A stretch of 32,000 nucleotides of DNA, taken from contig JAQTOB010000002.1 of the NCBI GenBank assembly GCA_028713575.1, positions 30,001 to 62,000 on the forward strand, read 5' to 3'. This document shows positions 16,830-32,000 of this stretch, one piece after another. The first letter of the stretch is position 1; every line of letters starts with the position of its first letter. The notes beneath the pieces were generated by a model. It was not told the origin of the DNA. It saw only the letters and a list, made by a program, of their open reading frames with translations, and made no database searches. Both the position numbers and the translations under genes were made by a program. Source of the stretch: Patescibacteria group bacterium (GTDB lineage Bacteria; Patescibacteriota; Patescibacteriia; UBA2591; UBA6264).

Positions 16830-16833
16830 TTTA

Positions 16834-17055
16834 TTATTGAGCGACGAATAAACGGAAAACCCCTAATCCCATAAAAGTAATTACTAAAATAATCGTCGCC
16901 GAGAAAATTATTTTTTCCAATCCCCTTTTTGTATGATAACCTTCGCCGCTGCCGCCGAAAGCCGAAGATAAACCGCTTCCCCTTTGTTGTAAAAGAACAG
17001 AAACGATTAAAAGAACGGAAATAATGATTTGGATAATATTTAGTATTTTTGTCAT
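16834..17055 (-). CDS. secG: Preprotein translocase subunit SecG
   Basis: 73 aa, two TM helices, LLQQRGSGLSSAFGGSG motif. Confidence 0.8.
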   Translation of the reverse strand: MTKILNIIQIIISVLLIVSVLLQQRGSGLSSAFGGSGEGYHTKRGLEKIIFSATIILVITFMGLGVFRLFVAQ

Positions 17056-17061
17056 ATGTTT

Positions 17062-17856
17062 TTATTTAGCAGATAAATATACGTTTTTTAACAAATAAAT
17101 CACGGTTAAAGGTCCAATTCCTCCGGGCACGGGCGAAAGATAATGTGTTTTTAAATGAATTTGAGAGTCAACGTCGCCGACTGATTTCCCTTTTTTACCA
17201 GAGGCAGACCGATTATAGCCAACATCAATAATAACTGCATTTTTTTTTATCATAAAGGGCTTAAGAAAATTAGGTTTCCCTAAAGCAACAATTAAAAAGT
17301 CCGCATTTTTAATTTTATTTTTTTTGAAATTTTTTAAATCAATGATTTCAACAATTAGTTTCTTTTTTTCCAAAATATTTTTTAAAGGATAAGTAAAAAC
17401 AGGATTTTTTCCCAAAATGACAAATTTTTTATTTTTGAGTGGCCTTTCACTTTGTTGAATTAGTTTTAGGACGGCTTGATAAACCGGAGAAATAAATTTT
17501 GTTTTTGGTCCAAATCCATCAACATCTTTTTGAGGAGAGATATTTTCTACCAAGACATCAGGATTAAATTTTTTTGGCAAGGGCATTTGAACAATCAAGC
17601 CGTGAAAATTTTTGTTTTGATTTATTTTTTTTATAACCGCAATTATTTTTTTTTGCGCAATTGAAGCAGGGAAACGAAAAAGCTTAAATTTCATTCCCAG
17701 TCGTTCAGCTGCTTTCTGTTTCAGCTTAACATAAATTAAAGAACCTGAGTTTTTTCCAATTAGAATAACAGCCAGGCCTGGTTTTTGTGGGCATTTTTTT
17801 ATTTTATTTTTTAGCCCTTTTTCAATTTTTTTGGCCGTGTCTTTGCCGTATAACAT
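17062..17856 (-). CDS. folD: Bifunctional methylenetetrahydrofolate dehydrogenase/cyclohydrolase
   Basis: VILIG..SGSLIYV, KDVDGF, SPVPGGIGPLT motifs. Confidence 0.85.
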   Translation of the reverse strand: MLYGKDTAKKIEKGLKNKIKKCPQKPGLAVILIGKNSGSLIYVKLKQKAAERLGMKFKLFRFPASIAQKKIIAVIKKINQNKNFHGLIVQMPLPKKFNPDVLVENISPQKDVDGFGPKTKFISPVYQAVLKLIQQSERPLKNKKFVILGKNPVFTYPLKNILEKKKLIVEIIDLKNFKKNKIKNADFLIVALGKPNFLKPFMIKKNAVIIDVGYNRSASGKKGKSVGDVDSQIHLKTHYLSPVPGGIGPLTVIYLLKNVYLSAK

Positions 17857-17857
17857 T

Positions 17858-19099
17858 TTATATCTTTAATTTAGAATAGAGGGGGTGACTTCGCGCCAAT
17901 TCTTTTACTTGTCGCGCGGTTTTTTTGAGAATTACCGGATTTTCCGGGTTGTAAACAACTTGACTGATTAATTGGCCGATGATTTTCATTTCTTTTTCTT
18001 TAAATCCGCGTGTGGTCAGGGCTGGCGTTCCTAACCTGATTCCCGAGGGATTAAAAGGCGTCCGCTGGTCATAAGGAATCATATTTTTATTAACATAAAT
18101 ACCAACCGCTTCTAAAGATTTCTCCGCTTGTTTGCCCGTTACTCCAGTTTTAGTTAAATCAACCAGAATTAAATGATTGTCTGTGCCGCCAGAAATAAGA
18201 GTTAAATTATTATCCTTTAACGATTGAGCTAAAGTTTTGGCGTTTTTTACAATCTGTCGGGCGTATTTTTTAAAACTCGGCAAAGAGGCTTCTTTTAATG
18301 CCACGGCAATAGCGGCGGTAGTGTGATTATGGGGTCCGCCCTGAAAACCGGGAAAAACGGTTTTATCAATCATTTCCGCGTATTCTTTTTTACACATAAT
18401 CATGGCACCCCGCGGTCCGCGCAAAGTTTTATGAGTAGTGGTAGTAACGATGTCAATAAAAGGAAAAGGATTAGGATGAACGCCGCCGATAATCAGGCCG
18501 GCCAGATGGGCAATGTCCGCCATGCTAACAGCCTTGACTTTTTTGGCAATCTCGGCGAATTTTTTGAATTTAATTATCCGCGGATAAGCCGTAGCCCCGC
18601 AAATAATAATTTTCGGACGATATTTTTTCGCCAGTTTTTCCACTTCTTTATAGTCTATCAGATGATTTTTTGGATTGACGCCGTACTGAACAAAATTAAA
18701 GATGCGACCGGAAAGATTAACTTTATGCCCGTGAGTCAGATGGCCGCCATGCGCCAAGTTCATGCCCATAATGGTGTCGCCGGGCTGTAACAAGGAAAAA
18801 TAAATTTCTAAATTAGCCGGAGAACCAGAATATGGTTGGACATTGACGTGTTCGGCATAAAACAGCTTTTTAGCCCTTTCTATCGCCAATGTTTCTATTT
18901 CATCAATGAACTGATTACCCCCGTAATATCTTTTCCCGACATAGCCCTCTGAATACTTATTGGTGAGAGGGGACCCTAGGGCTTCTAAAACTGCTTCAGA
19001 AACGAAATTTTCAGAGGGAATCAATTCCAAGCCCTGTCTTTGGCGGTTTATTTCTTTTGCCAATGATTTCGCGATTTGGGGGTCTGTTTTTTTTAACAT
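17858..19099 (-). CDS. glyA: Serine hydroxymethyltransferase
   Basis: LIPSENFVS, PLP-lysine motif TTTTHKTLRGPRG. The ATG at 19099 (MLKKTDPQ...) is preferred over the TTG at 19117. Confidence 0.9.
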   Translation of the reverse strand: MLKKTDPQIAKSLAKEINRQRQGLELIPSENFVSEAVLEALGSPLTNKYSEGYVGKRYYGGNQFIDEIETLAIERAKKLFYAEHVNVQPYSGSPANLEIYFSLLQPGDTIMGMNLAHGGHLTHGHKVNLSGRIFNFVQYGVNPKNHLIDYKEVEKLAKKYRPKIIICGATAYPRIIKFKKFAEIAKKVKAVSMADIAHLAGLIIGGVHPNPFPFIDIVTTTTHKTLRGPRGAMIMCKKEYAEMIDKTVFPGFQGGPHNHTTAAIAVALKEASLPSFKKYARQIVKNAKTLAQSLKDNNLTLISGGTDNHLILVDLTKTGVTGKQAEKSLEAVGIYVNKNMIPYDQRTPFNPSGIRLGTPALTTRGFKEKEMKIIGQLISQVVYNPENPVILKKTARQVKELARSHPLYSKLKI

Positions 19100-19126
19100 G
19101 GTTAAATTATATCTCAAACAGTTATT

Positions 19127-19146
19127 TTGTCAATTAATATTGACAA
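19127..19146. promoter_or_regulatory. 20-bp perfect palindrome carrying back-to-back TTGACA -35 hexamers
   Basis: TTGTCAAT-TAAT-ATTGACAA. On the minus strand: TTGACA, 16 nt, TATAAT (19106-19111) just upstream of the glyA ATG. Confidence 0.35.
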
Positions 19147-19197
19147 AGTTTGAATTTTATGGCATATTTATTATATATTTTAAGAAAAGGAGGAAAA

Positions 19198-19389
19198 ATG
19201 GGCACAAGAAAAAAAAATGAGGATGGCCTCTTGGTAGAGGCGTCCTCGCAAAAGCCCTATTCAAAGGGCTTTGACGATCGCATCAATGAAAGATGCGACT
19301 CAACGCCTCCTGAAGGCGTTGATTATTGGTGGTGGAAAATCCACTACCAACATGGGCAAGAGGATGCCCAGAAAATTTTGGACGAGTAA
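19198..19389 (+). CDS. Small hypothetical protein (63 aa)
   Basis: AAGGAGG 5 nt upstream of the ATG at 19198; strong terminator immediately downstream. Confidence 0.5.
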   Translation: MGTRKKNEDGLLVEASSQKPYSKGFDDRINERCDSTPPEGVDYWWWKIHYQHGQEDAQKILDE

Positions 19390-19401
19390 CTCATCTCGTC
19401 C

Positions 19402-19439
19402 AAAAAAAAGCTTCTGACCTCAGAAGCTTTTTTTATTTT
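19402..19439 (+). terminator. Rho-independent terminator
   Basis: AAGCTTCTGA-CC-TCAGAAGCTT stem followed by a T-run. Confidence 0.7.
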
Positions 19440-19473
19440 CTTTTTTTTGCTATACTATAATTTATACCAAGAA

Positions 19474-19545
19474 GCCGCTATCGTCTAGTGGTTAGGACAC
19501 ATGGTTCTCAGCCATGAAACCAGGGTTCGACTCCCTGTAGCGGTA
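19474..19545 (+). tRNA. tRNA-Glu(CTC)
   Basis: Hand-folded: acceptor GCCGCTA/TAGCGGT (G.U first pair), D-arm GTCT-AGTGGTTA-GGAC, anticodon stem CATGG/CCATG with loop TTCTCAG, T-arm CAGGG-TTCGACT-CCCTG. Confidence 0.9.
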
Positions 19546-19604
19546 TTTATTGCCTTAATTTATATTTAATTTATAATATAAGTATTATTCATAAACATAA
19601 ACAT

Positions 19605-20102
19605 ATGCCTCATGAAATAAAAGAACATCCGATTTCTTCAGAGATTCCTCAACCAGAGTCTTCTTTAGAAACCCCGTCTTCTTTAGAAAAAAAAGAACAA
19701 GAATCAAAATTTATTGAACCGGCGAAAACGGATGAGATTTTAAAAAAAATAAAAAAAGCTTTACCGGGGATTAAAACCAAACTAACCACTACTATTGTCA
19801 AAGAAAAAAGCCAAACAGTGAAAGAAATAGAAAATATTTTATCCGAAGACATGAATGAGATTTATCAGAATTTGTCGCCAGACATTAAGCAGGAATTTAA
19901 AAGAAGGGGCGAAGAGACGGCGTTTAAAATAGAACAATTGATTTGTCAGGTTAAAATCGCGGTTTATAAAATAGTGGATTTAATTAAACAATGGCTATTA
20001 ATTGTGCCGGGGGTGAATAAATTCTTTTTAGAACAAGAAACAAAAATAAAAACAGATAAAATTTTAGCTTTATCGGAAAAGGAAAAAAAGAATAAAGTTT
20101 AA
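19605..20102 (+). CDS. Hypothetical protein (165 aa), Lys/Glu-rich
   Basis: ORF ends 10 nt upstream of the TraD-like ATPase gene; no motif recognised. Confidence 0.5.
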   Translation: MPHEIKEHPISSEIPQPESSLETPSSLEKKEQESKFIEPAKTDEILKKIKKALPGIKTKLTTTIVKEKSQTVKEIENILSEDMNEIYQNLSPDIKQEFKRRGEETAFKIEQLICQVKIAVYKIVDLIKQWLLIVPGVNKFFLEQETKIKTDKILALSEKEKKNKV

Positions 20103-20112
20103 TTAATATAAT

Positions 20113-22662
20113 ATGGGGTTAGATATTTATTCAAATATTTTGTATTGGCGCGAGCGAGGATTTTTTAATCTTAAATTTTGGCTCCCTTTTTTTGTTTTAA
20201 TATTATTTTTAATTTTATTCTTCTTTTTAAAAAAATATTTAAGAAGGTCGGCTCAATATAAGTTTTCTTTTCAGCGCGCCATTCTTTTAGTCACGGTGCC
20301 TAAGATAAAAATGGATAAAGAAGAAAAAGAGAAAACCCCCAAAGAAATGTTGCAACCAATAGAAAATTTTTTTGATAACATTGGCGGATTAAAAGCACAA
20401 AAAGGATTTAAAACTTGGTTTTTAGGCCGTTCAGACCATTTTTCTTTTGAAATACTTTCAGACAAGCAGGGTATTATTTCTTTTTATGTGGTCGTGCCGC
20501 GAAATTTGCAAACGTTTTTTGAACAACAAGTTCACGCGCAATATCCAGCGGCGCAAATAGAAGAAGTAGATGACTATAATGTTTTTTTACCCCACGGAGA
20601 AGTTGTTTGCGCCAGTCTTACCTTAAGAACTTATTCCATGTTCCCAATTAAAACCTATAATAAGACAGAAACTGATCCTTTAAATGCCATTACTAATTCT
20701 TTGAGCCGAATTGCGGAGGAAGATTCAGCCGCGATTCAAATTATGGTTCGTTCGGCTCAGTCAGGTTGGCGTCAACCCGGCATCAAAGTTGCCCTAGAAA
20801 TGCAACAAGGCAAAAAATTATCAGAGGCGCTAAAAAATATGAGCGGAGGTTTATCAAAATTTTTTAGTTTTTTAACCGATTTTATTTTTCCCAAATCGCA
20901 AAAAAAACAAGATAAAGAATTAGATAAGCCGCATCAACTTTCACCCATGGAACAAGAAGTCGTTAAGACCATTGAAGAAAAGGCGAGCAAGGCCGGAATG
21001 GATGTAAATATTAGAATTGTGGTTTCTGCCCGCGATAAAGGATTGGCTGAAAGCTATTTAGATAACATTGTTAATGCTTTTGCCCAATATACGGGTTATG
21101 AATACGGCAATGGATTTAAAAAAGCAAAAATGAATAAAAACGAGATTATTAGGAATTTTATCTACCGGAATTTTAATGAGAATATAAGTTTTGTTTTAAA
21201 CACAGAAGAAATGGCCAGTATTTATCATTTTCCATTGCCGACAACAGAAACGCCAAATATTCGTTGGTTAATGGCGAAAAAAGCGCCGGCGCCGATTAAC
21301 ATTCCGCACGAAGGCTTGTTTTTAGGTTACAATATCTATCGCGGTCAAAAGACAGCCATTAAAATTAAAAGAGAGGACCGTCGTCGACATATGTATGTTA
21401 TTGGTATGACCGGTACAGGCAAATCTTGGTTTGCCGAAGGCTTGGCTATGCAAGATATTGCCAATGGCGAGGGTATCTGCTTTATTGACCCGCATGGAGA
21501 CGCTATTGGTCATATTTTAGAAAGAATTCCCAAGAATAGAGCCGAAGACGTAATTCTTTTTGACCCGGGCGACTTAACTCGGCCATTAGGATTGAATATG
21601 TTAGAATATGATTTTTCAGAACAAAAAACTTTTGTCATTAATGAAATCATGAATATTTTTGACAAGCTTTACGATTTGCGCGCAACCGGTGGTCCGATTT
21701 TTGAACAATATTTTAAAAACGCTTGTCATTTGGTTATGGATGATATAGCTTCAGGTTCTACTTTATTGGAAATTCCTAAAGTTTTAGCTGATGATGAATT
21801 TAGAAGATATAAGCTTTCCAAATGCAAAACCTTAATGGTTAAAGAATTTTGGGAAAAACAAGCTTTAAAGGCGGGGGGTGAAGCTTCTTTACAAAATATG
21901 GTTCCTTATATTACTAGTAAATTGACACCGTTTTTGACTAATGAATTTATGCAACCTATTATTTCCCAGCAAAAAAGCAGTTTGAATTTTAGAGAGGCCA
22001 TGGATAATAAAAAAATAATTTTAGCTAAATTATCTAAAGGTAAAATTGGTGATACCAATGCCTATTTGTTGGGAATGATTATTGTTGGCAAGATTTTAAT
22101 GTCTGCTTTGAGTCGTGGAGATATGCCGGAAGAAAAAAGAAATGATTTTTATTTATACATTGATGAATTTCAAAACTTTTTAACCGAAAGTATGCAGGTC
22201 ATTTTATCCGAAGCGAGAAAATACCGTTTATGTTTGAATATTATTCACCAGTACATCGGCCAGTTGGTTAAAAATAGTGATACTAAATTTAAGGACTCCA
22301 TTTTTGGCAACGTGGGGACAAAAATAGCCTTTCGTATCGGCGTGGACGATGCTGAAGATTTGACTAAAGAATTTGCCCCGGTTTTTAATGAATACGACTT
22401 TTTAAATATGCCTCAATATAGCGCTTTTGTAAAACTTTTGATTGACAATGCCAATCCGCCGGGTTTTAATATTTCTACGGTTCCTTTTGACCAAATCCCC
22501 GGAGTGCCACCGGCTAATCCGGAAATCGCAAAAATTATTAAGGAATTATCTCAATTAAAATACGGCAAAACTTTACCCATGATTGAACGGGAAATAAGTC
22601 AAAGAAGTCAAATTATTAATCAATTAAAGCAAACAACAGATGGTAATTTATCGCAAATATAG
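20113..22662 (+). CDS. Membrane-anchored P-loop ATPase, type IV secretion coupling-protein-like (TraD/VirD4/TrwB superfamily)
   Basis: N-terminal TM helix, Walker A GMTGTGKS, DPHGD, Walker B-like LYIDEFQNF, RKYRLCLNIIHQYIGQL block as in TraG/TraD C-terminal ATPase domains. Confidence 0.7.
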   Translation: MGLDIYSNILYWRERGFFNLKFWLPFFVLILFLILFFFLKKYLRRSAQYKFSFQRAILLVTVPKIKMDKEEKEKTPKEMLQPIENFFDNIGGLKAQKGFKTWFLGRSDHFSFEILSDKQGIISFYVVVPRNLQTFFEQQVHAQYPAAQIEEVDDYNVFLPHGEVVCASLTLRTYSMFPIKTYNKTETDPLNAITNSLSRIAEEDSAAIQIMVRSAQSGWRQPGIKVALEMQQGKKLSEALKNMSGGLSKFFSFLTDFIFPKSQKKQDKELDKPHQLSPMEQEVVKTIEEKASKAGMDVNIRIVVSARDKGLAESYLDNIVNAFAQYTGYEYGNGFKKAKMNKNEIIRNFIYRNFNENISFVLNTEEMASIYHFPLPTTETPNIRWLMAKKAPAPINIPHEGLFLGYNIYRGQKTAIKIKREDRRRHMYVIGMTGTGKSWFAEGLAMQDIANGEGICFIDPHGDAIGHILERIPKNRAEDVILFDPGDLTRPLGLNMLEYDFSEQKTFVINEIMNIFDKLYDLRATGGPIFEQYFKNACHLVMDDIASGSTLLEIPKVLADDEFRRYKLSKCKTLMVKEFWEKQALKAGGEASLQNMVPYITSKLTPFLTNEFMQPIISQQKSSLNFREAMDNKKIILAKLSKGKIGDTNAYLLGMIIVGKILMSALSRGDMPEEKRNDFYLYIDEFQNFLTESMQVILSEARKYRLCLNIIHQYIGQLVKNSDTKFKDSIFGNVGTKIAFRIGVDDAEDLTKEFAPVFNEYDFLNMPQYSAFVKLLIDNANPPGFNISTVPFDQIPGVPPANPEIAKIIKELSQLKYGKTLPMIEREISQRSQIINQLKQTTDGNLSQI

Positions 22663-23737
22663 GCCAAAAACTTTTAAGGAAGTAATTGGTCAAGAAAACA
22701 TTGTGCAAATTTTAGAAAACGAAATTAAAAGTGATAAAGTTGCTCATGCTTATCTTTTTACCGGACCTCGCGGTTTAGGTAAAACCACTTTATCAAGATT
22801 AATGGCCAAAGCAGTTAATTGTTTAAATAGAAAAAACGGAGAATCAGAACCATGTAATAAATGCGACCATTGTCAAAGCATCAACAATAATCGTTTTATA
22901 GATTTGATTGAACTTGATGCCGCTTCACAAACGGGGGTGGATAATGTGCGAGAAAACATTATTGCTTATTCAAGAATTCCTCCGGCTCAAGGCAAATACA
23001 AAGTTTTTGTCATTGATGAATGCCACATGCTTTCTTTGTCCGCCTTTAATGCCTTGTTAAAAATATTAGAAGAGCCGCCTAAATATGTTATTTTTATTCT
23101 TGCTACTACAGAAATTCATAAATTGCCAGAAACCATTATTTCTCGATGCCAGAGATTTGATTTTAACAAAGTGAGCATGGAAAAAATTGTGCAAAGAATG
23201 GAAACAATTATGAAGCAAGAGAAAATAAAAGTGGATAAAAAAGTTCTTCAAAATATCGCTAGTCGTTCTGAAGGTTGTGTCAGGGATGCGGAAAGTCTTT
23301 TAGGTCAATTAATGTTTTTAAATGATAAAAATATTACCGAAAAAGAGGCCAGTCTGATTTTGCCTTTGGCTCAGACCGATGCTATTGTCAAATTTTTGCA
23401 ATTTATTTTTAAAAAAGACAAAACCGAAGCGGTTAAATTAATTAATGAACTTTTAGAACAGGGGATAAACTTGGACCAATTTGTCGTTGATTTAATAGAA
23501 TTTTTAAGAAAGATTATGCTGATTAAAATCAAGGCGGTTAATAAAGATTATTGGCTCCAAGATGAAAATTTTCAAAAAAAAGCAGACGAAATGGCGGGAA
23601 AAACAGAATTAAAAACCTTAATTTCTGCCCTTGATGTCTTTATCAAAACCAAAATTCAACTGGGTTACAGCGAAATTCCGCAGTTGCCTCTGGAACTGGC
23701 TGTTTTAAAAATTTGCGAAGAAGCACAGCCTAAATAA
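22640..23737 (+). CDS. dnaX: DNA polymerase III subunit gamma/tau (short, gamma-length)
   Basis: YRKYRPKTF, GPRGLGKTT, Zn module CNKCDHCQS, DECHML, SRCQRF. 23-nt overlap with the upstream ATPase gene. Confidence 0.85.
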   Translation: MVIYRKYRPKTFKEVIGQENIVQILENEIKSDKVAHAYLFTGPRGLGKTTLSRLMAKAVNCLNRKNGESEPCNKCDHCQSINNNRFIDLIELDAASQTGVDNVRENIIAYSRIPPAQGKYKVFVIDECHMLSLSAFNALLKILEEPPKYVIFILATTEIHKLPETIISRCQRFDFNKVSMEKIVQRMETIMKQEKIKVDKKVLQNIASRSEGCVRDAESLLGQLMFLNDKNITEKEASLILPLAQTDAIVKFLQFIFKKDKTEAVKLINELLEQGINLDQFVVDLIEFLRKIMLIKIKAVNKDYWLQDENFQKKADEMAGKTELKTLISALDVFIKTKIQLGYSEIPQLPLELAVLKICEEAQPK

Positions 23738-23880
23738 TAAATAAAAACAAGCCATGGCCCACAACGGGCGACGCCTGTTTTTAGTAGATACTATGAATAA
23801 TAGTATCTGAATATAGAATAACAATTTGACACAAAAGGTCAAGCGCTAATCTGTGGGGAACTAAAACTAGTTAACTTTCC

Positions 23881-25062
23881 ATGAAAACAAACGTTGACGA
23901 AAAACAAATTAAAGGATTATTAACTCGAGGAGTTAATGAAGTAATTGATTTTAGTCATTTAAGAAAACGTTTGTTATCGGGAGAAAAATTAAGAATCAAA
24001 TTAGGCATTGACCCTACCAGCCCTCATATTCATTTAGGAAGGGCGGTTTCTCTTCTTAAATTAAGAGATTTTCAAAATCTTGGGCACAAGGTGGTATTTA
24101 TTATTGGCGATTTTACTGGTGTTGTTGGCGACACTTCTGACAAAGAAAGCGAACGCCCCATGCTTTTTAAAAAACAGGTGGAAGAGAATATGAAAACGTA
24201 TATCAGGCAAGCTGGGAAAATTTTAGACATGGAAAAAACCGAAATTTGTCATAATTCTACGTGGCTAAAAAAACTTGGCTATGAAGAAATAGGAAAACAG
24301 GCGAATCAGTTTTCTTTAGCTGAGTTCATCAATCGGGAAAACATTAAAAAGCGACTAAACTTGGGGACCAGGGTTTCTTTAAGAGAACTTCTTTATCCTT
24401 TAATGCAGGGATATGACAGCGTTGAAGTGAAAGCTGACGTGGAGCTCGGGGGAACAGACCAGAGATTTAATTTGCTGGCAGGTCGGACCTTGCAGGAATA
24501 TTATGGTCAAAAACCTCAGGACGTAATGATGACTAATCTTATTTTAGGTACGGACGGCAGAAAAATGAGTTCCAGTTGGGGTAATACTATCAATATTGTG
24601 GACAAACCAAGTGAAATGTTCGGTAAAATAATGAGTTTAACCGATGATTTAATCATAACCTATTTTGAACACTGCACCCGGGTTGATATGGATAAGGTGA
24701 AAAAATATAGCGAAGAATTGAAGGCCGGTAAAAATCCCAAAGATGTCAAAATGGATTTAGCTTATGAGATTACCAAGATATACTGGGGAGAAAAAAAATC
24801 AGAAGAAGCCAAAGATTATTTCATCACTGTTTTTCAAAAAAAGGGAATTCCGCAAGAAATATCGAAAATGAAATTGGCGAACAAAAATATTCTTGAGATT
24901 TTGGTTTTAAGTAAATTGGCAAAAAGTAAAAGCGATGCCAGAAGGCTAATAGGTCAAAAAGGCGTAACAGTTGATGGAAAAACAATAGAATCAACAGAAG
25001 AAACAGTTAAAAAGGGTAGCATTATCCAAAAAGGAAAAAGATATTTTGTAAAAATCATTTAG
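23881..25062 (+). CDS. tyrS: Tyrosine--tRNA ligase
   Basis: GIDPTSPHIHLGR (HIGH), KMSSS (KMSKS), C-terminal S4-like domain. Confidence 0.9.
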   Translation: MKTNVDEKQIKGLLTRGVNEVIDFSHLRKRLLSGEKLRIKLGIDPTSPHIHLGRAVSLLKLRDFQNLGHKVVFIIGDFTGVVGDTSDKESERPMLFKKQVEENMKTYIRQAGKILDMEKTEICHNSTWLKKLGYEEIGKQANQFSLAEFINRENIKKRLNLGTRVSLRELLYPLMQGYDSVEVKADVELGGTDQRFNLLAGRTLQEYYGQKPQDVMMTNLILGTDGRKMSSSWGNTINIVDKPSEMFGKIMSLTDDLIITYFEHCTRVDMDKVKKYSEELKAGKNPKDVKMDLAYEITKIYWGEKKSEEAKDYFITVFQKKGIPQEISKMKLANKNILEILVLSKLAKSKSDARRLIGQKGVTVDGKTIESTEETVKKGSIIQKGKRYFVKII

Positions 25063-25095
25063 ATGCCGGGTCGTCTAACTTGCCCCGCCAATTTT

Positions 25096-25431
25096 ATGTC
25101 ATATCTTTATATTTTAAAAAATAGATTAGGCAGGCATTATATCGGGATTACTAAATTAGAACCAAGAGAAAGATTAAAACGACATAATCAAGGAGACGTT
25201 TATTCAACAAAATCCGGGAGGTCCTGGAAAATAATTTGTCTAGAAAAATTTGAAACTCTTAAAGAAGCAAGAGAAATGGAAAAAATGATAAAGAGATGGA
25301 AAGGCGGAAATGCATTTAAAAAGTTTCTCTGCAAAACTGCCGGGTCGTCTAATGGCAGGACAACGGATTCTGGCTCCGTTTATCTTGGTTCGAATCCAAG
25401 CCCGGCAGTTTTGCAGAAAAACAAGATATAA
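25096..25431 (+). CDS. GIY-YIG nuclease-family protein (small UPF0213/YhbQ-like type); 3' end uncertain
   Basis: MSYLYILKN..GRHYIGIT..RLKRHNQG...EAREMEKMIKRWK. No in-frame stop before the tRNA, so the last ~30 codons are translated tRNA sequence. Confidence 0.7.
   Translation: MSYLYILKNRLGRHYIGITKLEPRERLKRHNQGDVYSTKSGRSWKIICLEKFETLKEAREMEKMIKRWKGGNAFKKFLCKTAGSSNGRTTDSGSVYLGSNPSPAVLQKNKI
25338..25408 (+). tRNA. tRNA-Gln(CTG)
   Basis: Hand-folded: acceptor TGCCGGG/CCCGGCA (U1-A72), D-arm GTCT-AATGGCA-GGAC, anticodon stem ACGGA/TCCGT with loop TTCTGGC, T-arm CTTGG-TTCGAAT-CCAAG, discriminator G. Confidence 0.9.
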
Positions 25432-25754
25432 ATTTGGCGGGGTGAACAGGACAACGGATTCTGGCTTCGTTTATCTTGGTTCGACTTGTCCCGTTAAAGG
25501 CGGGAATCCAATCTTGGCAGCCATCCTTCGCCAAGGCTACGAAATGGCTAAAACTATGTTGTTGTATTTGTTGCTTTGAATTTTAGGTAGTCCGGAACTT
25601 TAGTGAAGGATACCAAGCCCGGCAGTTTTTTATTGCTTCCGTTCCTCAAAACCTTCAGCCCGCTATATAAATAGCGACGAAGACACTGATGCTGAGGGAA
25701 GCGCCGACGAACGAGAGTGAAGAGGGACTGAGCTTAACAGAGCGAATGTAATTA

Positions 25755-25968
25755 ACTTAAGAAAGGGGTCTGTCCCCAAAAAATGCCTTTCTAAAATCCT
25801 TATCAGTGTTGGATTTTAAGACGATTTTTAAAAAATAGTCGAATATCGACTACTTTAGAAAAATTAAATTCACCAAAATGGGACCGCCTTTGGAAAATGG
25901 CATACAGGGGCCGGACATAGATTTTTTAAAAGTCAGACCCCTTAAAGGGAAGATTGAGGAGGTTTAAC
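25755..25968 (+). repeat. 214-bp structured direct repeat, copy 1
   Basis: Aligns without gaps to 27685-27898 (offset 1930 bp) with 8 differences, all transitions. Confidence 0.9.
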
Positions 25969-26144
25969 ATCTGATGTGATGGTGAGTACCTACGAGGTGA
26001 GACCTCGTAGGGGTGATGAAAAATTCCCGTTTTTGTTTTTTGGCCCAATTTCGCCTCTATCTTTTACAGGGTCGCCACTTTTTATTGAGGTATATAAAAA
26101 TACGAAATTATTTAAATAATTTGCGGATTAAAAAATTTAATTTT

Positions 26145-26477
26145 ATGAAAACAATCAAATGGTTTGCTCGAATAATCGCATTATGTATTCTGGTGTTCGC
26201 TTTGCCGTTTTATTTTGGCTACGGTAATCCATTGCCGTTTGCTAATCCGAATTATTCTTTGTGGGAGAATGTTGCACTATCTATGATGCCACTGGTTTTT
26301 ATCGGTTTAGCCTTGGGCTGGAAGTATCCAAAAATCGCAGGCTGGCTTATTATTAGTGCAATTGCAATTGGTTTTATCGTTGGACTTTTAACAGAAGCAA
26401 ACCTCAGTATCAATCTGGCAGTTCCTATCATTCCAGGAATTTTGTATTTAATAGATGGGTATAAAAAAAATGAATAA
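26145..26477 (+). CDS. Small integral membrane protein (110 aa, 3-4 TM)
   Basis: The hydrophobic ORF core starts at MKTIKWFARIIAL (ATG 26145). The upstream part of the ORF, from 26013, is AT-rich and basic, so it is probably not coding. Confidence 0.55.
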   Translation: MKTIKWFARIIALCILVFALPFYFGYGNPLPFANPNYSLWENVALSMMPLVFIGLALGWKYPKIAGWLIISAIAIGFIVGLLTEANLSINLAVPIIPGILYLIDGYKKNE

Positions 26478-26646
26478 ATATATTAAGATAATACTTTCTA
26501 TTCTGGCGGTATTATTCGGGTTATTTTTAATTGTATTTGGCGGATACGATGACAGTCCTGGAGCACAAGGACTTGGACTTATATTAGTTATTACTACAGT
26601 CATTATCGTAATTAGAAGCAGAAAGAAAAACAACAATCCACTATGA
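26455..26646 (+). CDS. Small membrane protein (2 TM; alternative start 26470)
   Basis: Two hydrophobic helices separated by GGYDDSPGAQG; overlaps the neighbouring genes at both ends (operon-like). Confidence 0.4.
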   Translation: MGIKKMNKYIKIILSILAVLFGLFLIVFGGYDDSPGAQGLGLILVITTVIIVIRSRKKNNNPL

Positions 26647-27659
26647 TTTTTGAGCATTCATCAAAAAACAAAAAGGTATTATTGTTTATTTTTATAACTA
26701 TTTTAATGATAGGTGTTTTTTTGTCTTTATATTCGTCAGTCATCTTTCAAGAAGGCAATCCTTGGCCACAAATCAAAGGAATGGTTCAATTAAAATTTGG
26801 CGATAGTGATATTGTGAAGTTGTCGGGTTCAGATAATAAATTTATGACCGAAAGTAAAAACGGGACCATGATACATAATTTCATGAAAACCAAAGGATAC
26901 GAATTTACCGAGCAAATGGGTTCAGGTTACTTCTTCAAATCTTCTACAGGACAAAGCGCCATTGCCACTCATAAATATTACACTCGTTATTATTCGCTTT
27001 GGACTATTACCGAAAATAACAATTTCCAAACTGACAACGATCTGTGGGCGATGACTACCGATAACAACGGAGCAACCTTTCAATATCCAAAAGAGTTATT
27101 GGCCAAATATATTAGTATTGTAGAGTGGCCGCCGACAGTTAAGGTGGAATTTGGCAGTTTCTCTTGCGTTGAGACGCCACAAGAAAAAAGCAGTATGCTT
27201 GAAATAACCAGTCAGAGATTGGTTGATGATAGAATTTACTGCGTTAATGTTAAAAATGAGGGAGCGGCGGGAAGTGTTTATTCTTCCTATGTTTATACGA
27301 CTCCCAGGAGAGGAAAACTGGTTTCGGTTAGCTTTGTCTTGCGCTATACGAATTGTGCCAATTATGACGAGGAGCAGAGTCAGGCCTGTACAAGCGAGCG
27401 CGAGGCTTTTGATTTTGATGCGACAGTGGATCGCATAGTCCAGACTGTTAAATGGGATTCAGCTTTAAGTGAAGACACCTTATTTAATCAAATAGCTAAA
27501 TGTTTGGTATCAAGTCGGTCGGAAGATCAGGAAAAATGCGATGAATTTTTGAAACAGATTAGCGATTTTGATTCCTGCGTAATGGCTGGTTTCTCCATAA
27601 TGAAATCAAACCCTCTCCAGTGCGCCACGCCAGACGGCCGAATCTTTATTCAAAAGTGA
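26643..27659 (+). CDS. Signal-anchored extracytoplasmic protein (338 aa), Cys-containing C-terminal module
   Basis: N-terminal TM/signal anchor; visibly higher G+C than surrounding genes. ATGA overlap with the preceding ORF. No family recognised. Confidence 0.55.
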   Translation: MIFEHSSKNKKVLLFIFITILMIGVFLSLYSSVIFQEGNPWPQIKGMVQLKFGDSDIVKLSGSDNKFMTESKNGTMIHNFMKTKGYEFTEQMGSGYFFKSSTGQSAIATHKYYTRYYSLWTITENNNFQTDNDLWAMTTDNNGATFQYPKELLAKYISIVEWPPTVKVEFGSFSCVETPQEKSSMLEITSQRLVDDRIYCVNVKNEGAAGSVYSSYVYTTPRRGKLVSVSFVLRYTNCANYDEEQSQACTSEREAFDFDATVDRIVQTVKWDSALSEDTLFNQIAKCLVSSRSEDQEKCDEFLKQISDFDSCVMAGFSIMKSNPLQCATPDGRIFIQK

Positions 27660-27684
27660 AATAAGTAATTTTTCGGTATAATAG

Positions 27685-27898
27685 ACTCAAGAAAGGGGTC
27701 TGTCCCCAAAAAATGCCCTTCTAGAATCCTTATCAGTGTTGGATTTTAAGACGATTTTTAAAAAATAGTCGAATATTGACTACTTTAGAAAAATTAAATT
27801 CACCAAAATGGGACCGCCTTTGGAAAATGGCATACAGGGGTCGGACATAGATTTTTTAAAAGTCAGACCCCTTAAAGGGAAAATTGGGGAGGTTTGAC
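27685..27898 (+). repeat. 214-bp structured direct repeat, copy 2
   Basis: See copy 1; lies directly upstream of the SRPBCC gene. Confidence 0.9.
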
Positions 27899-27957
27899 CT
27901 CAGTAATATAGGGACGTGACAGGGTTCGGCCCAGCAAATTATTGTAAAATAATATAC

Positions 27958-28404
27958 ATGAACAAAATAACGCTCCATAATCAATGGGTTGTCAAAGCTC
28001 CCATAAATGATGTATTCAGAATAATGACCGACTTTGAAAAATTTCCGAAGAATTTTCCAAAGGTTGCTGAATCAATACAGATTAATAAACGGGAAGGAAA
28101 TTATTTGGGAATGGACGCAACCGTAAAATCATTCGGCAAAAGGTTTCAAGTAAAGATGAAAACTCAAATCCTCCCAGGGAAGGGCTTTATCTCAGATAAT
28201 GACAGTTATCAGTTTGGGACTTCCGGACATGAAGAGCTGCTGCTTTCCGAACACGTTGAAGGAACTTTAATTGACTATACCTATCAGGTCACCATTCATA
28301 AAAAATGGCTGAGTATAATCGCTGTACCTCTGCTGCGCTGGTATTCAATGAAATACTGGGAAAAGGCGGTTATTGATCAGCTTAAAAAGACCCTTGAGAA
28401 ATAA
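27958..28404 (+). CDS. SRPBCC-superfamily protein (polyketide cyclase/START-like)
   Basis: About 148 aa, with the pattern I.APINDVFRIMTDFEKFP... typical of SRPBCC N-termini. The ATG at 27958 is preferred over the GTG at 27916. Confidence 0.6.
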   Translation: MNKITLHNQWVVKAPINDVFRIMTDFEKFPKNFPKVAESIQINKREGNYLGMDATVKSFGKRFQVKMKTQILPGKGFISDNDSYQFGTSGHEELLLSEHVEGTLIDYTYQVTIHKKWLSIIAVPLLRWYSMKYWEKAVIDQLKKTLEK

Positions 28405-28447
28405 TTGAAAGTAGGAGTATGCAGGGGTTCAATTCCTACATTTTTTC

Positions 28448-28476
28448 TTGACAAATTTTTATTTTTATCGTATAAT
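28448..28476 (+). promoter_or_regulatory. Consensus sigma-70 promoter
   Basis: TTGACA (28448-28453), exactly 17 nt, TATAAT (28471-28476). Confidence 0.6.
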
Positions 28477-28565
28477 ATAATTGTTAGATTAAAAGATTCC
28501 TAAAAGGGGAGTTTTTTAATTCAAGGTCGATCTTTAACAAGTTAAAGCAAAAAAGAGGCACGCCT

Positions 28566-28835
28566 ATGGCTTTATTTTTTATTGGCATTTTGGAGATGAT
28601 TATTGTCACCACCTGGACTAAAGTCGTAACCCGGACGAAGATTATCGCAAGCGGAATAGTTACCTTAATCAACATTTTGATTTGGTATTATGTTTTAGAG
28701 ACAATTGTTAACGATATTAACAATTGGCGTTTAGTTCTCTTGTATGCTTTTGGTTGTGCTCTGGGTACGATGTTGACGACTTTTTATTTCGCCAACAGAG
28801 AAAAAACAGGGCAAGCGGAAAAGAAGCTAGAATAA
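28566..28835 (+). CDS. DUF5698-like small membrane protein (N-terminal module of the UPF0316/YebE family)
   Basis: 3 TM; pattern LEMIIVTTWTKVVTRTK..., ...DINNW..., ..GCALG resembles the UPF0316 N-terminal domain (from memory). Confidence 0.5.
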   Translation: MALFFIGILEMIIVTTWTKVVTRTKIIASGIVTLINILIWYYVLETIVNDINNWRLVLLYAFGCALGTMLTTFYFANREKTGQAEKKLE

Positions 28836-28907
28836 CATTATTTTAGTCTTTGTGCTTATGACACCAGAAGATTCATTGCCGAATAGTCGCAAGACAATCG
28901 GTAACTA

Positions 28908-28946
28908 AAAATCGCTTTTATTATATGTAAAGCGATTTTAGTTTTA
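28908..28946 (+). terminator. Rho-independent terminator
   Basis: AAAATCGCTTT / AAAGCGATTTT 11-bp stem, 10-nt loop, followed by AGTTTT. Confidence 0.65.
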
Positions 28947-28982
28947 AATAAAATGTGTTATAATGTTAAAAATTTTAATAAT

Positions 28983-29804
28983 ATGTCAAAAAAAATTGTT
29001 GATTTCGTAAAAATCGCCTGGTATGGTAAACATTTTGGCGAAGAACCTCCTTTGGTTGGAAAAAGGGGAGCAGGCGCCATATTTTTTACTGGTTGCAATT
29101 TAAGATGCATTTATTGCCAAAATTTTCAAATTTCTCAACAAGGTTTAGGCAAAAGGTATAATCTTAAAGAATTTATTGACATAATGCTAAAATTACAAAA
29201 GGAAAGGGCCCTGAATATAGACTTAGTTACGCCGACCATCTGGCGTAAACAAATAAAACAAGCGGTTATTTTAGCCAAAAAAAAGGGATTGAAGATTCCG
29301 ATTGTTTGGAATTCAAACGCTTATGAAGAAGTTGATGATTTAAAAGAAATGGAGGGATTGGTGGATATTTATTTGCCGGACTTTAAATATAGCGATGATA
29401 ATTTGGCTTTTAAATATTCCGGAGCAAAGAATTATGTTACTAAAGCAACGGCGTCAATCAAAGAAATGCAGCGCCAAGTTGGCAACTTAAAAACATTTAA
29501 GGGCATAGCGGAAAAAGGGATAATCGTTAGGCATTTAATTTTGCCAAATCAGGCAAAGAATAGTTTGAATGTTTTAAAAATCATCAAAAAAATTGATAAA
29601 GATATTATGGTGAGCTTGATGACGCAATACGAACCGGTTCACAAGGCGAAGGATTTTTCAGAAATAAACAGAACAATAAATAAAAAAGAATTCAATGAAG
29701 TTTTAAATTACTTTTTATTTTTGAATTTTAAGAACGCCTGGATTCAAGAGCGGGGAAGCCACCATATTTTTTTGCCTGATTTTAATAAAAAAAATCCTTT
29801 TTAA
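28983..29804 (+). CDS. Radical SAM protein, PflX-like (homolog of pyruvate formate-lyase activating enzyme)
   Basis: HFGEEPPLVG..GAIFFTGCNLRCIYCQN (CX3CX2C). Start moved to 28983 because TGTTATAAT (28956-28964) lies inside the longer ORF. Confidence 0.75.
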   Translation: MSKKIVDFVKIAWYGKHFGEEPPLVGKRGAGAIFFTGCNLRCIYCQNFQISQQGLGKRYNLKEFIDIMLKLQKERALNIDLVTPTIWRKQIKQAVILAKKKGLKIPIVWNSNAYEEVDDLKEMEGLVDIYLPDFKYSDDNLAFKYSGAKNYVTKATASIKEMQRQVGNLKTFKGIAEKGIIVRHLILPNQAKNSLNVLKIIKKIDKDIMVSLMTQYEPVHKAKDFSEINRTINKKEFNEVLNYFLFLNFKNAWIQERGSHHIFLPDFNKKNPF

Positions 29805-29848
29805 AAAACAAATTTTATGTTATAATAATTTTTTATGATTAAAAATAT

Positions 29849-30583
29849 ATGAATACTTTAATTTGGATAATTATTTCCGCTTTTATTATTAGCTTAACAG
29901 CTTGGGTCGGTTTAATTACTTTAATTTTAAAAGAAGAAAAATTAAAAAAAATTCTTTTACCCTTAGTGGCTTTTTCCGCCGGCTCTTTAATCGGTGGCGC
30001 TTTTTTACACTTGATTCCTGAAGCCCTGGAAAGAGAAGGTTCTGAAAATGTCTTTTTTTGGCTTTTAATCGGATTTTTAATTTTCTTTTTAATGGAACAA
30101 TTTTTGCATTGGCATCATTGCCACCGAGTTCCTTCTGAACATAAAAAGCCGGTAACTTATTTAATTCTTATTTCTGACGGCATTCATAATTTTATTGACG
30201 GCATGATTATTGCCGGCTCTTTTTTAATTAATGTAAAGATGGGGATTATTACTTGGTTGATTTGCTTAGGTCATGAAATTCCCCAGGAAATAGGGGAATT
30301 TGGTATTTTACTCCATGGCGGATGGAAAAAATATAAAGCCCTGTTATTCAATTTTGTTTCCGCCTTAATGATTATTCCCGGCGGGCTTTTCGTTTATTTT
30401 ATTTCTCAAGAAATCAATACGACTTTCTTGCTTTCTTTCGCTGCTGGCAATTTTATTTACATTGCAGCTTCTGATTTAATCCCAGAAATAAAAACAGGAG
30501 AAAATTTAAAAAAAAGTTTAAAACACTTTTTCTTTTTCATCCTTGGTATTTTATTTATTTTTTTAATTGGCATGATTGAATAG
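29849..30583 (+). CDS. zupT: ZIP-family divalent metal transporter (ZupT-like)
   Basis: Multi-TM; HNFIDGMIIAGSF and GHEIPQEIGEFGILL signature motifs. Confidence 0.8.
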   Translation: MNTLIWIIISAFIISLTAWVGLITLILKEEKLKKILLPLVAFSAGSLIGGAFLHLIPEALEREGSENVFFWLLIGFLIFFLMEQFLHWHHCHRVPSEHKKPVTYLILISDGIHNFIDGMIIAGSFLINVKMGIITWLICLGHEIPQEIGEFGILLHGGWKKYKALLFNFVSALMIIPGGLFVYFISQEINTTFLLSFAAGNFIYIAASDLIPEIKTGENLKKSLKHFFFFILGILFIFLIGMIE

Positions 30584-30634
30584 AGGCCAATTTTCCTTTA
30601 TTAAAAGTTATTTAATTAATAATAATTTAATATT

Positions 30635-31477
30635 ATGAATAATGAATTTGAAAACAAAATTTTTGAAGACTTAACCCAAGAACAAATGTTTTCTAAAGCG
30701 AAAAAAGTTATTCAAAGAGAAGAAATAAAACCCCGTGATTTTAAGGACCTTTATGGCGAAGATAATGTACAAATTGACGAACAATACGTGGAAAGAATGG
30801 AAAGAATATTTAAACAAGAAGAAAAACCGGAACAAAAAAAAATAAATCAGTTGGCGACTATTTTTGAAGCAGTTATTTACGAACATGGTGAATTAAGCGA
30901 TTGGTTCGGACCAGACGCTTATATGATTAAATCTTCCCGTTATGATGACATAAAAAACGGCGTAGACAGTGTAATAGAGTTTAGAGAAGATGAGCGCGCA
31001 GCCTCCCATTTGGCTTTGGCCGTTGATGTCACTTTTAGTTCGGATACACAAAATAAATTTAAAAGAATAAAAAAAGAAATTGATAACGGCCAATTGGCTA
31101 AAGTTAAATATTTTTGCTCAGAACATTTGAGTATTAGAGGAGAGTTAAGCCATTTGCCTCGTGTAATAATCGGCGCCGGGGCTAAAACCGTCAATGAATT
31201 AGGAGAATTGTGGATAGAAGAAAAAAACAAAAAATTAGGCAATCATCATATTCAATTTCAGATTTTAGAAGAGATATTAATGCAAATGAAAGCTTTTGCC
31301 AAATATGCCAAAACAAAGAAACAAAACGAAATCGCGGATACTTATGAAAAAACAGCTAAAATGATTGAAAAGATATATCAAAATAAAAAAGAGAATTTAA
31401 AAGACGATGGAGAAAGGGATGAGATTTTTTATCATCTTAAGGATTTGGTAAATTTCTTTGACCTTTTTTCTGATTAA
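30635..31477 (+). CDS. Hypothetical protein (280 aa)
   Basis: Long ORF with coding-like composition; no family recognised. Stop lies 3 nt before the sigma-factor start. Confidence 0.5.
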   Translation: MNNEFENKIFEDLTQEQMFSKAKKVIQREEIKPRDFKDLYGEDNVQIDEQYVERMERIFKQEEKPEQKKINQLATIFEAVIYEHGELSDWFGPDAYMIKSSRYDDIKNGVDSVIEFREDERAASHLALAVDVTFSSDTQNKFKRIKKEIDNGQLAKVKYFCSEHLSIRGELSHLPRVIIGAGAKTVNELGELWIEEKNKKLGNHHIQFQILEEILMQMKAFAKYAKTKKQNEIADTYEKTAKMIEKIYQNKKENLKDDGERDEIFYHLKDLVNFFDLFSD

Positions 31478-31480
31478 TAT

Positions 31481-32000
31481 ATGGATTTTTCCGACCAGCA
31501 ATTAATAGTTGATTATCTAAAGGGTGATGAAGAATCTTTTAAGATTTTGATTAAACGATATCTTAAACCGATTTATAATTTTGTTTATCAATACGTTAAT
31601 GACCCACAGGAAGCGCAAGACATTACTCAGGAAGTGTTTGTCAGGGTCTGGCGTTATTTGAAAAAATTTAATCAAAAAAAAAATTTTAAAACCTGGCTTT
31701 TTCAAATTGCTAAAAATGTTTCTATAGATTTTTATCGAAAGGCTCGCTTTCATGGAGGAGAAAGAAAAAATATTTCCTTTAGTGATTTTGAAAACGAAAA
31801 AGGGGAAAATATTTTAACAGAAACCATTCCTGACCCCGGACCTTTGCCCGATGAAATTTTAGAAAGAAGCGATATAGGTCAGCAACTGGCGAAAGCGACA
31901 AAAAAACTGTCGTTAAATTATAAAAACGTCATTTGTCTTTATTATTATCATCATTTTACTTTTCAAGAAATTGCCGAAATTTTATCTGCGCCGTTGAATA
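31481..32000 (+). CDS. ECF-type sigma-70 family RNA polymerase sigma factor (3' end beyond the window)
   Basis: Hand-translated; not in the ORF track because it runs off the window. Region 2 motifs DITQEVFVRVW and WLFQIAKNVSIDFYRK. Start of region 4: LSLNYKNVICLYYYHHFTFQEIAEIL. Confidence 0.8.
   Translation, partial: MDFSDQQLIVDYLKGDEESFKILIKRYLKPIYNFVYQYVNDPQEAQDITQEVFVRVWRYLKKFNQKKNFKTWLFQIAKNVSIDFYRKARFHGGERKNISFSDFENEKGENILTETIPDPGPLPDEILERSDIGQQLAKATKKLSLNYKNVICLYYYHHFTFQEIAEILSAPLN

Follow-up and report, generated by a model that had tools for sequence, protein, structure and literature searches.

Two copies of a 214-bp direct repeat bracket an accessory gene cassette that is present or missing in nearly identical Patescibacteria assemblies

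Two direct repeats and the segment that lies between them can collapse to one recombinant repeat via homologous recombination, as happens in the formation of solo long terminal repeats (LTRs). In integrons, the attC site is 57-141 bp long, carries RYYYAAC...GTTRRRY cores and is crossed over at G|TT of the R' core, and an IntI gene is usually found nearby. The microcin H47 island of E. coli holds accessory genes between extended imperfect direct repeats without a recombinase of its own, and its excision leaves hybrid sites whose junctions fall in segments of identity (PMC3191183; PMC5426353). By our comparison, the H47 island would be the closest described case to a locus that we analyzed in a 32,000-nt stretch of DNA (hereafter the window) from an uncultured Patescibacteria group bacterium (NCBI GenBank assembly GCA_028713575.1, contig JAQTOB010000002.1, positions 30,001 to 62,000 of the forward strand). 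At this locus, accessory genes are likewise bracketed by long imperfect direct repeats (the repeat unit), the segment encodes no integrase or excisionase, and the empty site of a sister strain carries a hybrid repeat with its junction in a segment of identity. Unlike the H47 island, the segment spans 1.9 kb rather than 13 kb, its host belongs to the uncultured Patescibacteria, and the case is known from one junction, in silico.

The window has a GC content of 34%, and its proteins match metagenome-assembled genomes (MAGs) of Patescibacteria/Paceibacteria. Its direct repeat family has two copies of 223 nt on the + strand (copy 1, 25749-25971; copy 2, 27679-27901), which share 95% identity and lie 1930 bp apart from start to start. 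No gap was introduced inside the repeat when both copies were aligned with MAFFT, and the 214-nt core (25755-25968 in copy 1) contains exactly eight differences, every one a transition. Five of these are in the left part (copy 1/copy 2: 25758 T/C, 25788 T/C, 25794 A/G, 25847 C/T, and 25911 C/T) and three in the right part (25952 G/A, 25957 A/G, and 25966 A/G), a divergence of 3.7%. A match of 214 nt at 96% cannot be chance. The all-transition pattern is uninformative: a near-identical assembly (L001, see below) differs from the window at 24 single bases, 20 of them by transitions, and under this background eight out of eight has a probability of ~0.2. Similarity between the copies decays across ~10 nt per side (25745-25758 and 25966-25975), and the flanks farther out are unrelated. 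A blastn search of the unit against the whole 32-kb window returned no third copy. The ungapped repeats, their offset and the eight transitions had all been claimed in an earlier note on this DNA and were confirmed by our alignment; the unrelated flanks claimed there held beyond the fading edges.

Both repeat copies are intergenic. On the + strand, the gene order leading to copy 1 is DnaX, TyrRS (23881-25062), an open reading frame (ORF) of GIY-YIG type, tRNA-Gln (25337-25409), and fragments of a second tRNA-Gln. Copy 1, which is non-coding and lies downstream of this tRNA-Gln region, is followed by a 173-nt spacer, a DUF7670 gene, a 63-aa ORF, and the gene of a 338-aa protein. Copy 2 follows the stop codon of the 338-aa gene and precedes an SRPBCC gene, behind which come DUF5698, a radical-SAM protein, and a ZIP transporter. 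The earlier note had thus read the gene context correctly, with copy 1 placed before a three-gene membrane/secreted cassette and copy 2 before the SRPBCC gene. The cassette body (25972-27678, 1707 bp, + strand) comprises the spacer and the three genes, and together with one unit it makes up the 1930 bp that are missing from the sister strain.

As assembled, the locus occurs in two states in nearly identical strains, namely unit-cassette-unit and single unit. Both unit copies and the cassette were also found in GCA_028711035.1 (L001/L029), on a 60-kb contig that is 99.75-99.9% identical to the window, so that the duplicated state is not confined to one assembly. Copy 1 is identical there, and copy 2 differs from that of the window only by C in place of T at 27777. 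The second state was found on a 517,351-bp JGI contig (Ga0378408_0000012, 3300037067; locus L028), which encodes the exact SRPBCC protein and in which TyrRS is followed by SRPBCC without the DUF7670 or 338-aa genes in between. Window positions 16047-25971 align to L028 1-9944 and window positions 27679-32000 to L028 9722-14043; since L028 9722-9944 aligns to both copies, exactly 1930 bp are absent from L028. What remains is one unit, with the tRNA-Gln region on one side and the SRPBCC gene on the other.

This solo unit is a hybrid, with copy 1 on its left and copy 2 on its right. In a five-way alignment, it was of copy-1 type at 25758, 25788, 25794, 25847, and 25911, of copy-2 type at 25952, 25957, 25966, and 25969, and had no private changes. 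The crossover that produced the L028 solo unit, or that made use of it, is therefore placed within a 40-nt tract that is identical in both copies (25912-25951, equal to 27842-27881). To the right of the junction, the window and L028 show no difference over 1.5 kb; within 700 bp to its left, they are set apart by two substitutions, a 19-nt indel, and another substitution. The strains differ by ~0.1-0.2% outside clustered tracts that look imported, and the sister strain is ~99.8% identical.

We favor, with a probability of about 0.7, the explanation that a 1.93-kb accessory segment is gained or lost by recombination for which the direct repeats are the substrate; this segment consists of one unit and the DUF7670, 63-aa, and 338-aa genes. 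One of two ideas in the earlier note, recombination-competent repeats whose excision would leave one copy, is supported by L028 with its single hybrid unit and its missing 1930 bp. Ordinary homology-driven exchange between the repeats, either RecA-type or RecA-independent, would loop the segment out as a 1930-bp circle, and the reverse route would be the integration of such a circle at a solo unit by a single crossover of the Campbell type. The change from unit-cassette-unit to one recombinant unit resembles solo-LTR formation, although the unit is not an LTR and there is neither a retroelement nor a target-site duplication. The unit itself can be described as a hairpin-rich, lineage-restricted, non-coding module of ~220 bp that is normally located upstream of SRPBCC, and we do not think that it acts as a shared regulatory leader.

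With regard to the direction of the event, we regard loss in the L028 lineage as somewhat likelier than recent gain. The two copies differ by 3.7% in comparison with ~0.1-0.2% between strains, which would place a duplication in situ long before the strain split. Loss, the reading that we favor, would mean that the duplicated arrangement far predates this split and that L028 dropped the cassette. The gain alternative, in which the cassette came recently on DNA bearing a diverged unit, is plausible because the strains show dense imported tracts (TyrRS, 24024-24141; ZIP, 30019-30496; and the 3' end of SRPBCC in the ENA contig L022). Specifically, the TyrRS tract has 27 differences in 118 nt between the window and L028, 11-12 strain differences are clustered in the ZIP transporter gene, and L022 has 35 differences from window positions 28237-28420 across its last 184 nt. 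These clusters resemble short recombination tracts that were imported into genomes otherwise ~99.8% identical. The strains recombine often.

Several points weigh against the favored explanation. The solo state rests on a single metagenome contig, and an assembler that skipped the loop is formally possible; it would need to have made its join in the 40-nt tract rather than in the longer tracts of 52 or 63 nt. A single junction is compatible with homologous and site-specific exchange alike, and no outgroup that could orient the event keeps synteny (L019-L021). The favored explanation does not account for the origin of the first unit-cassette-unit arrangement, and the search for further copies spanned only ~69 kb of the species, which is roughly a tenth of the genome.

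The first of these points leads to the possibility that one locus state is an assembly artefact, with either the repeat collapsed in L028 or the duplication in the window being chimeric. All of the data are metagenome assemblies, and two short contigs (L022 and L030) break inside the unit: L022, which starts inside the unit toward its 3' end, matches the window without a difference from 27866 into SRPBCC, and the Logan contig L030 (SRR12486999) starts at window position 27852, from where a 31-mer first reaches the copy-2-specific base 27882. In Logan graphs, k is 31 and each 31-mer occurs once per accession (PMC12424806). The L030 start at 27852 therefore marks a graph branch, which would be expected if SRR12486999 also contains a right end of copy-1 type that runs into the cassette, and this third data set adds support to the favored explanation. 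Against an artefact, the duplicated state is shared by two genomes that were assembled separately and are distinguished by 24 other sites, and the copies differ from each other at eight sites, so that a simple assembly duplication does not apply. In addition, the hybrid junction of L028 needs k-mers spanning 25911 and 25952, which is possible only if the haplotype is real or k <= 41. We consider an artefact the least probable of the explanations weighed here.

A different explanation is that the unit is a dedicated attachment site and that the 1.93-kb segment is a minimal integrase-less mobile cassette, excised and re-integrated by a recombinase whose gene is located at another place in the genome, much like a cis-mobilizable element (CIME), the H47 island, or an integron. 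The limits of the unit are sharp and module-like, and it contains palindromes and a perfect 10-bp inverted repeat, with the left arm AAGGGGTCTG at 25763-25772 (14 nt in from the left unit edge) and the right arm CAGACCCCTT at 25934-25943 (28 nt in from the right unit edge). The hybrid solo site is what would be expected after exchange between two attachment sites; 340 nt away is a tRNA gene whose 17-nt 3' end is duplicated, as is typical of past integrase activity; and the E. coli H47 island provides a precedent for the movement of repeat-flanked islands that lack their own recombinase (PMC3191183). On the other hand, no recombinase gene was found within ~40 kb, and the unit was found at one locus only. 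The strongest palindrome, a perfect 7-3-7 repeat (TAGTCGA-ATA-TCGACTA, 25836-25852) at the tip of a long A/T-rich central hairpin, has one arm changed from C to T in copy 2 of the window and lies outside the crossover interval. The crossover itself took place at least 20 nt inside the right edge rather than at a terminal core as in attC, and the 214-bp unit exceeds any attC and lacks RYYYAAC/GTTRRRY cores. Weighing both sides, a dedicated attachment site is unlikely. A trans-acting site-specific system is not required by anything in these data, with the best palindrome placed outside the crossover interval.

At this locus, as in integron cassettes and clusters of attC sites lacking integron integrases (CALIN), genes are interspersed with similar structured repeats, and the cassette could conceivably pass through a circular intermediate. 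The present locus differs from these in that its unit is 214 bp long without R''/R' core motifs, its crossover is not at a terminal G|TT, and its cassette has three genes and is accompanied by no IntI gene. An identification of the unit as attC was rejected on similar grounds: the unit measures 214-223 bp, its edges read AATTAAC/AATAGAC and GTTTAAC/GTTTGAC, cores of the RYYYAAC/GTTRRRY type and an integrase are missing, and the crossover between 25911 and 25952, to the left of GTTT at 25962, is in the wrong place for attC. The locus resembles tRNA-targeting elements and CIMEs in that it neighbors a tRNA gene whose 17-nt 3' end is duplicated, has direct repeats as its borders, and carries no mobility genes; in contrast to them, the repeats are not tRNA-derived, and neither a partner integrative and conjugative element (ICE) nor an integrase was seen. 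In line with what the earlier note had stated, Pfam annotation revealed no integrase, transposase, or reverse transcriptase among the genes of the window, nor in 6 kb beyond it or in the ~16 kb added by the flanking loci.

The unit could also be a cis-regulatory leader or a structured RNA that serves both the cassette and the SRPBCC operons, for instance a riboswitch-like element in which alternative pairings could mask the GAGGAGG motif near the 3' end (i.e., the right edge of the unit), in which case the cassette polymorphism would be incidental. As a discrete ~220-bp module, the unit has a G+C content above that of the genome, and its interior holds three internal hairpins, one of which is tipped by the 7-3-7 palindrome; a small hairpin, GGGG-TCTGT-CCCC (25765-25777), overlaps the left arm of the inverted repeat. 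Its + strand folds into a stable multi-branch structure (-59 kcal/mol; z = -3.4 relative to shuffled sequences, and -2.7 for the core), whereas the 340 nt upstream are not unusually stable (z = -0.6). A -10-like TATAAT is located at the left edge of copy 2, and of the four copy differences that fall within predicted stems, three would permit G-U pairing on the + strand. However, the - strand folds about equally well (z = -3.0), and folding as DNA gave z = -2.7. Since both strands fold stably, the signal reflects the inverted repeats and is not strand-specific. Transitions yield three G-U compatible differences out of four by chance, so this count does not amount to covariation; no covariation was seen between the near-identical copies, whose eight transitions include no compensatory changes. 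The motif in copy 2 that resembles a Shine-Dalgarno sequence has no start codon at a proper distance.

The neighboring genes argue against a leader as well. The earlier note had proposed as its second idea one regulatory leader for two operons, which was not supported: the unit is missing in relatives with the same genes, and SRPBCC has its own block downstream of the unit. Relatives with ~80% identical cassette genes (L002, L003, and L023) and relatives with 89-93% identical SRPBCC genes (L019-L021) had no unit. A conserved leader or riboswitch was rejected on the basis of blastn, nhmmer, and covariance model searches, in which the unit was absent upstream of homologs of DUF7670 (L002 and L003) and of SRPBCC (L020 and L021). 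The SRPBCC block (cccagcaaattattgtaaaataatatac followed by ATG; 27930-27957, + strand) is conserved in the window, L019, and L020, and it is probably the promoter region of SRPBCC itself, because relatives without the unit share it. At the Rfam gathering threshold, only tRNAs passed in the window; at E <= 10, searches of 2.8 kb and of 261 nt gave best scores of 13-20 bits in comparison with thresholds of 48-114, and no family matched the 261 nt, the T-box included, which was not even listed. A T-box had been considered separately as UGGGACCGC resembles the T-box motif UGGNACCGC, yet the Rfam model failed to match. A leader function of this kind is, in our view, improbable.

We further considered that the units are copies of a non-autonomous element similar to a miniature inverted-repeat transposable element (MITE), which flank passenger genes like a composite transposon and of which the solo unit would be comparable to a solo LTR. 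The 10-bp perfect inverted repeat near the ends, the lack of the unit at orthologous positions of relatives, and the motif GTAAT adjoining both outer edges would be consistent with this. Nevertheless, the inverted repeat is sub-terminal, its arms being set in from the edges by 14 and 28 nt, neither edge is flush with its GTAAT motif, and no transposase gene is present. No other copy was detected in ~69 kb of the same species, and a covariance model of the unit, when run over 227 kb of related loci, added no copy to those already known. Phage and plasmid records yielded only 30-nt chance matches when compared with the unit by blastn. Exact scans returned two chance matches of an interior 20-mer in 185,579 species genomes (Clostridium and Desulfobacterales) and no match of three interior patterns in IMG/VR, but exact-match scans miss diverged copies, and the absence of the unit elsewhere is thus weakly supported. 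Taken together, the sub-terminal inverted repeat, the missing flush target-site duplication, and the lack of dispersed copies in the ~69 kb searched led us to reject a MITE or the end of an insertion sequence (IS), and the chance that the units are MITE-like is very small. The checks against Rfam and IS/MITE ends that the earlier note had suggested therefore matched no known family or end, and the other refuting condition of the note, a duplication seen in this assembly alone, did not apply either. As far as could be searched, the unit appears to be confined to one species-level lineage.

A 20-mer at the left-end hairpin GGGG-TCTGT-CCCC (AAAGGGGTCTGTCCCCAAAA) was found in 13 unrelated, GC-richer JGI metagenome contigs (L006-L018), where it is a short motif alone without extended similarity to the unit. 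In three of them (L012, L013, and L018), it occurs in several copies or inverted pairs per contig, and it was commoner than we expected by chance.

Two further identifications of the unit were rejected. Frame +0 of the unit is open but for one TAG, and a stop codon is kept in this frame (TAA/TGA) where the similarity between copies ends. A protein-coding fragment is not indicated, however, as there was no Pfam or PHROGs match, and a comparison of the frame +0 translation with 1.84 billion representative proteins gave one spurious match, to a repeat protein. A template repeat/variable repeat pair of a diversity-generating retroelement (DGR) was dismissed because the differences (T/C, A/G, C/T, and G/A) run in both directions, the copies are intergenic, and there is no reverse transcriptase in the window. 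We note that a DGR does occur beside a cassette homolog in L003 (11681-14051), with bAvd, a reverse transcriptase, and a 143-nt template/variable pair (85% identical) whose end lies in a 216-aa target gene; genes for a serine recombinase and for restriction-modification are located near it. This DGR has its own unrelated 143-nt repeats and its own target, and the idea that the unit belongs to a DGR was therefore rejected.

To summarize what the repeats represent, we read the case as accessory genes that were gained or lost through ordinary repeat-mediated exchange, and not as a new class of RNA or mobile element. The mechanism is textbook, the example from a bacterium of the candidate phyla radiation (CPR) is new, the repeat unit is unclassified, and the finding raises no new question. 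It does provide a clean natural example in which ~99.8% identical Patescibacteria (CPR) strains differ in a small set of membrane/secreted proteins, a difference that is accounted for by a single exchange between 214-bp repeats without any mobile-element genes. CPR bacteria live attached to hosts and have tiny genomes, and repeat-bounded islets could allow such host-attached cells to vary their surface cheaply. It is also conceivable, though improbable, that the unit is a purpose-built attachment site and that the integrase-less 1.93-kb cassette leaves as a circle and re-enters solo units via recombination supplied by the host or by another element. If true, this would be a cassette-exchange system for surface/membrane proteins in reduced Patescibacteria genomes.

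The three cassette genes are all located on the + strand. The DUF7670 gene (26145-26477) encodes the only cassette protein with a Pfam match, and no family match was obtained for the 63-aa membrane ORF (26455-26646) or for the 338-aa membrane-anchored protein (26643-27659). The structure model of the 338-aa protein is weak (pLDDT 66.7, pTM 0.37), and when it was used as a query, Foldseek returned no match at E <= 0.001. No cassette protein was found on viral contigs. Two guesses on the history of these genes were tested and proved wrong, namely that the spacer (25972-26144) is a remnant of a 64-aa gene that precedes DUF7670 in relatives, and that homologs of 400-404 aa are fusions of the 63-aa and 338-aa ORFs. 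A paralog of the 338-aa protein (P0053; 283 aa, 70% identical) is encoded in the same genomes at an unrelated locus near rpsP/trmD (L031 9517-10852 / L032), with no repeat unit nearby. Within the spacer between copy 1 and DUF7670, a hairpin at 25989-26011 has a perfect 9-bp stem (CCTACGAGG-TGAGA-CCTCGTAGG) followed by a T-rich stretch, and it may be a terminator or an insulator of the cassette.

The SRPBCC (Polyketide_cyc) gene (27958-28404, + strand) is the first gene behind copy 2 and also behind the solo unit. The conserved block that contains TTGTAAAAT is only ~7-10 nt ahead of its ATG, and this distance suggests that the SRPBCC mRNA may be leaderless or near-leaderless. Upstream of the DUF5698 gene, a perfect TTGACA-17-TATAAT promoter is present at 28448-28476. 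On the other side of the locus, 3 kb upstream of the repeats, an 849-aa protein (20113-22662) has HerA/DUF87 and TraG/TraD C-terminal domains (type IV coupling protein-like), with no other conjugation genes nearby.

The tRNA-Gln(CTG) gene (25337-25409, + strand), which is located 340 nt upstream of copy 1, lies in a region that has undergone past rearrangements. A GIY-YIG nuclease ORF (25063-25431; Pfam E = 9e-14), which is absent from the called genes of GCA_028711035.1, runs straight through the tRNA-Gln gene. Directly downstream of the true tRNA-Gln, we observed a tRNA-Gln-like pseudo-copy (window 25437-25632; L028 9300-9520) that was not called by ARAGORN. Its first part (25447-25484) is a 97% copy of the portion of tRNA-Gln from the anticodon to the T-arm, ~125 nt then occupy the place of the T-loop, and the 17-nt 3' end of the tRNA (CCAAGCCCGGCAGTTTT) recurs at 25613-25629. 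The pseudo-copy may be the scar of an earlier tRNA-targeted integration. In L028, it has an extra 19-nt insertion (GGCCTGCCTGCGGGAGGCA) beside the CTG anticodon, which together with adjoining bases can pair as a 7-bp stem.

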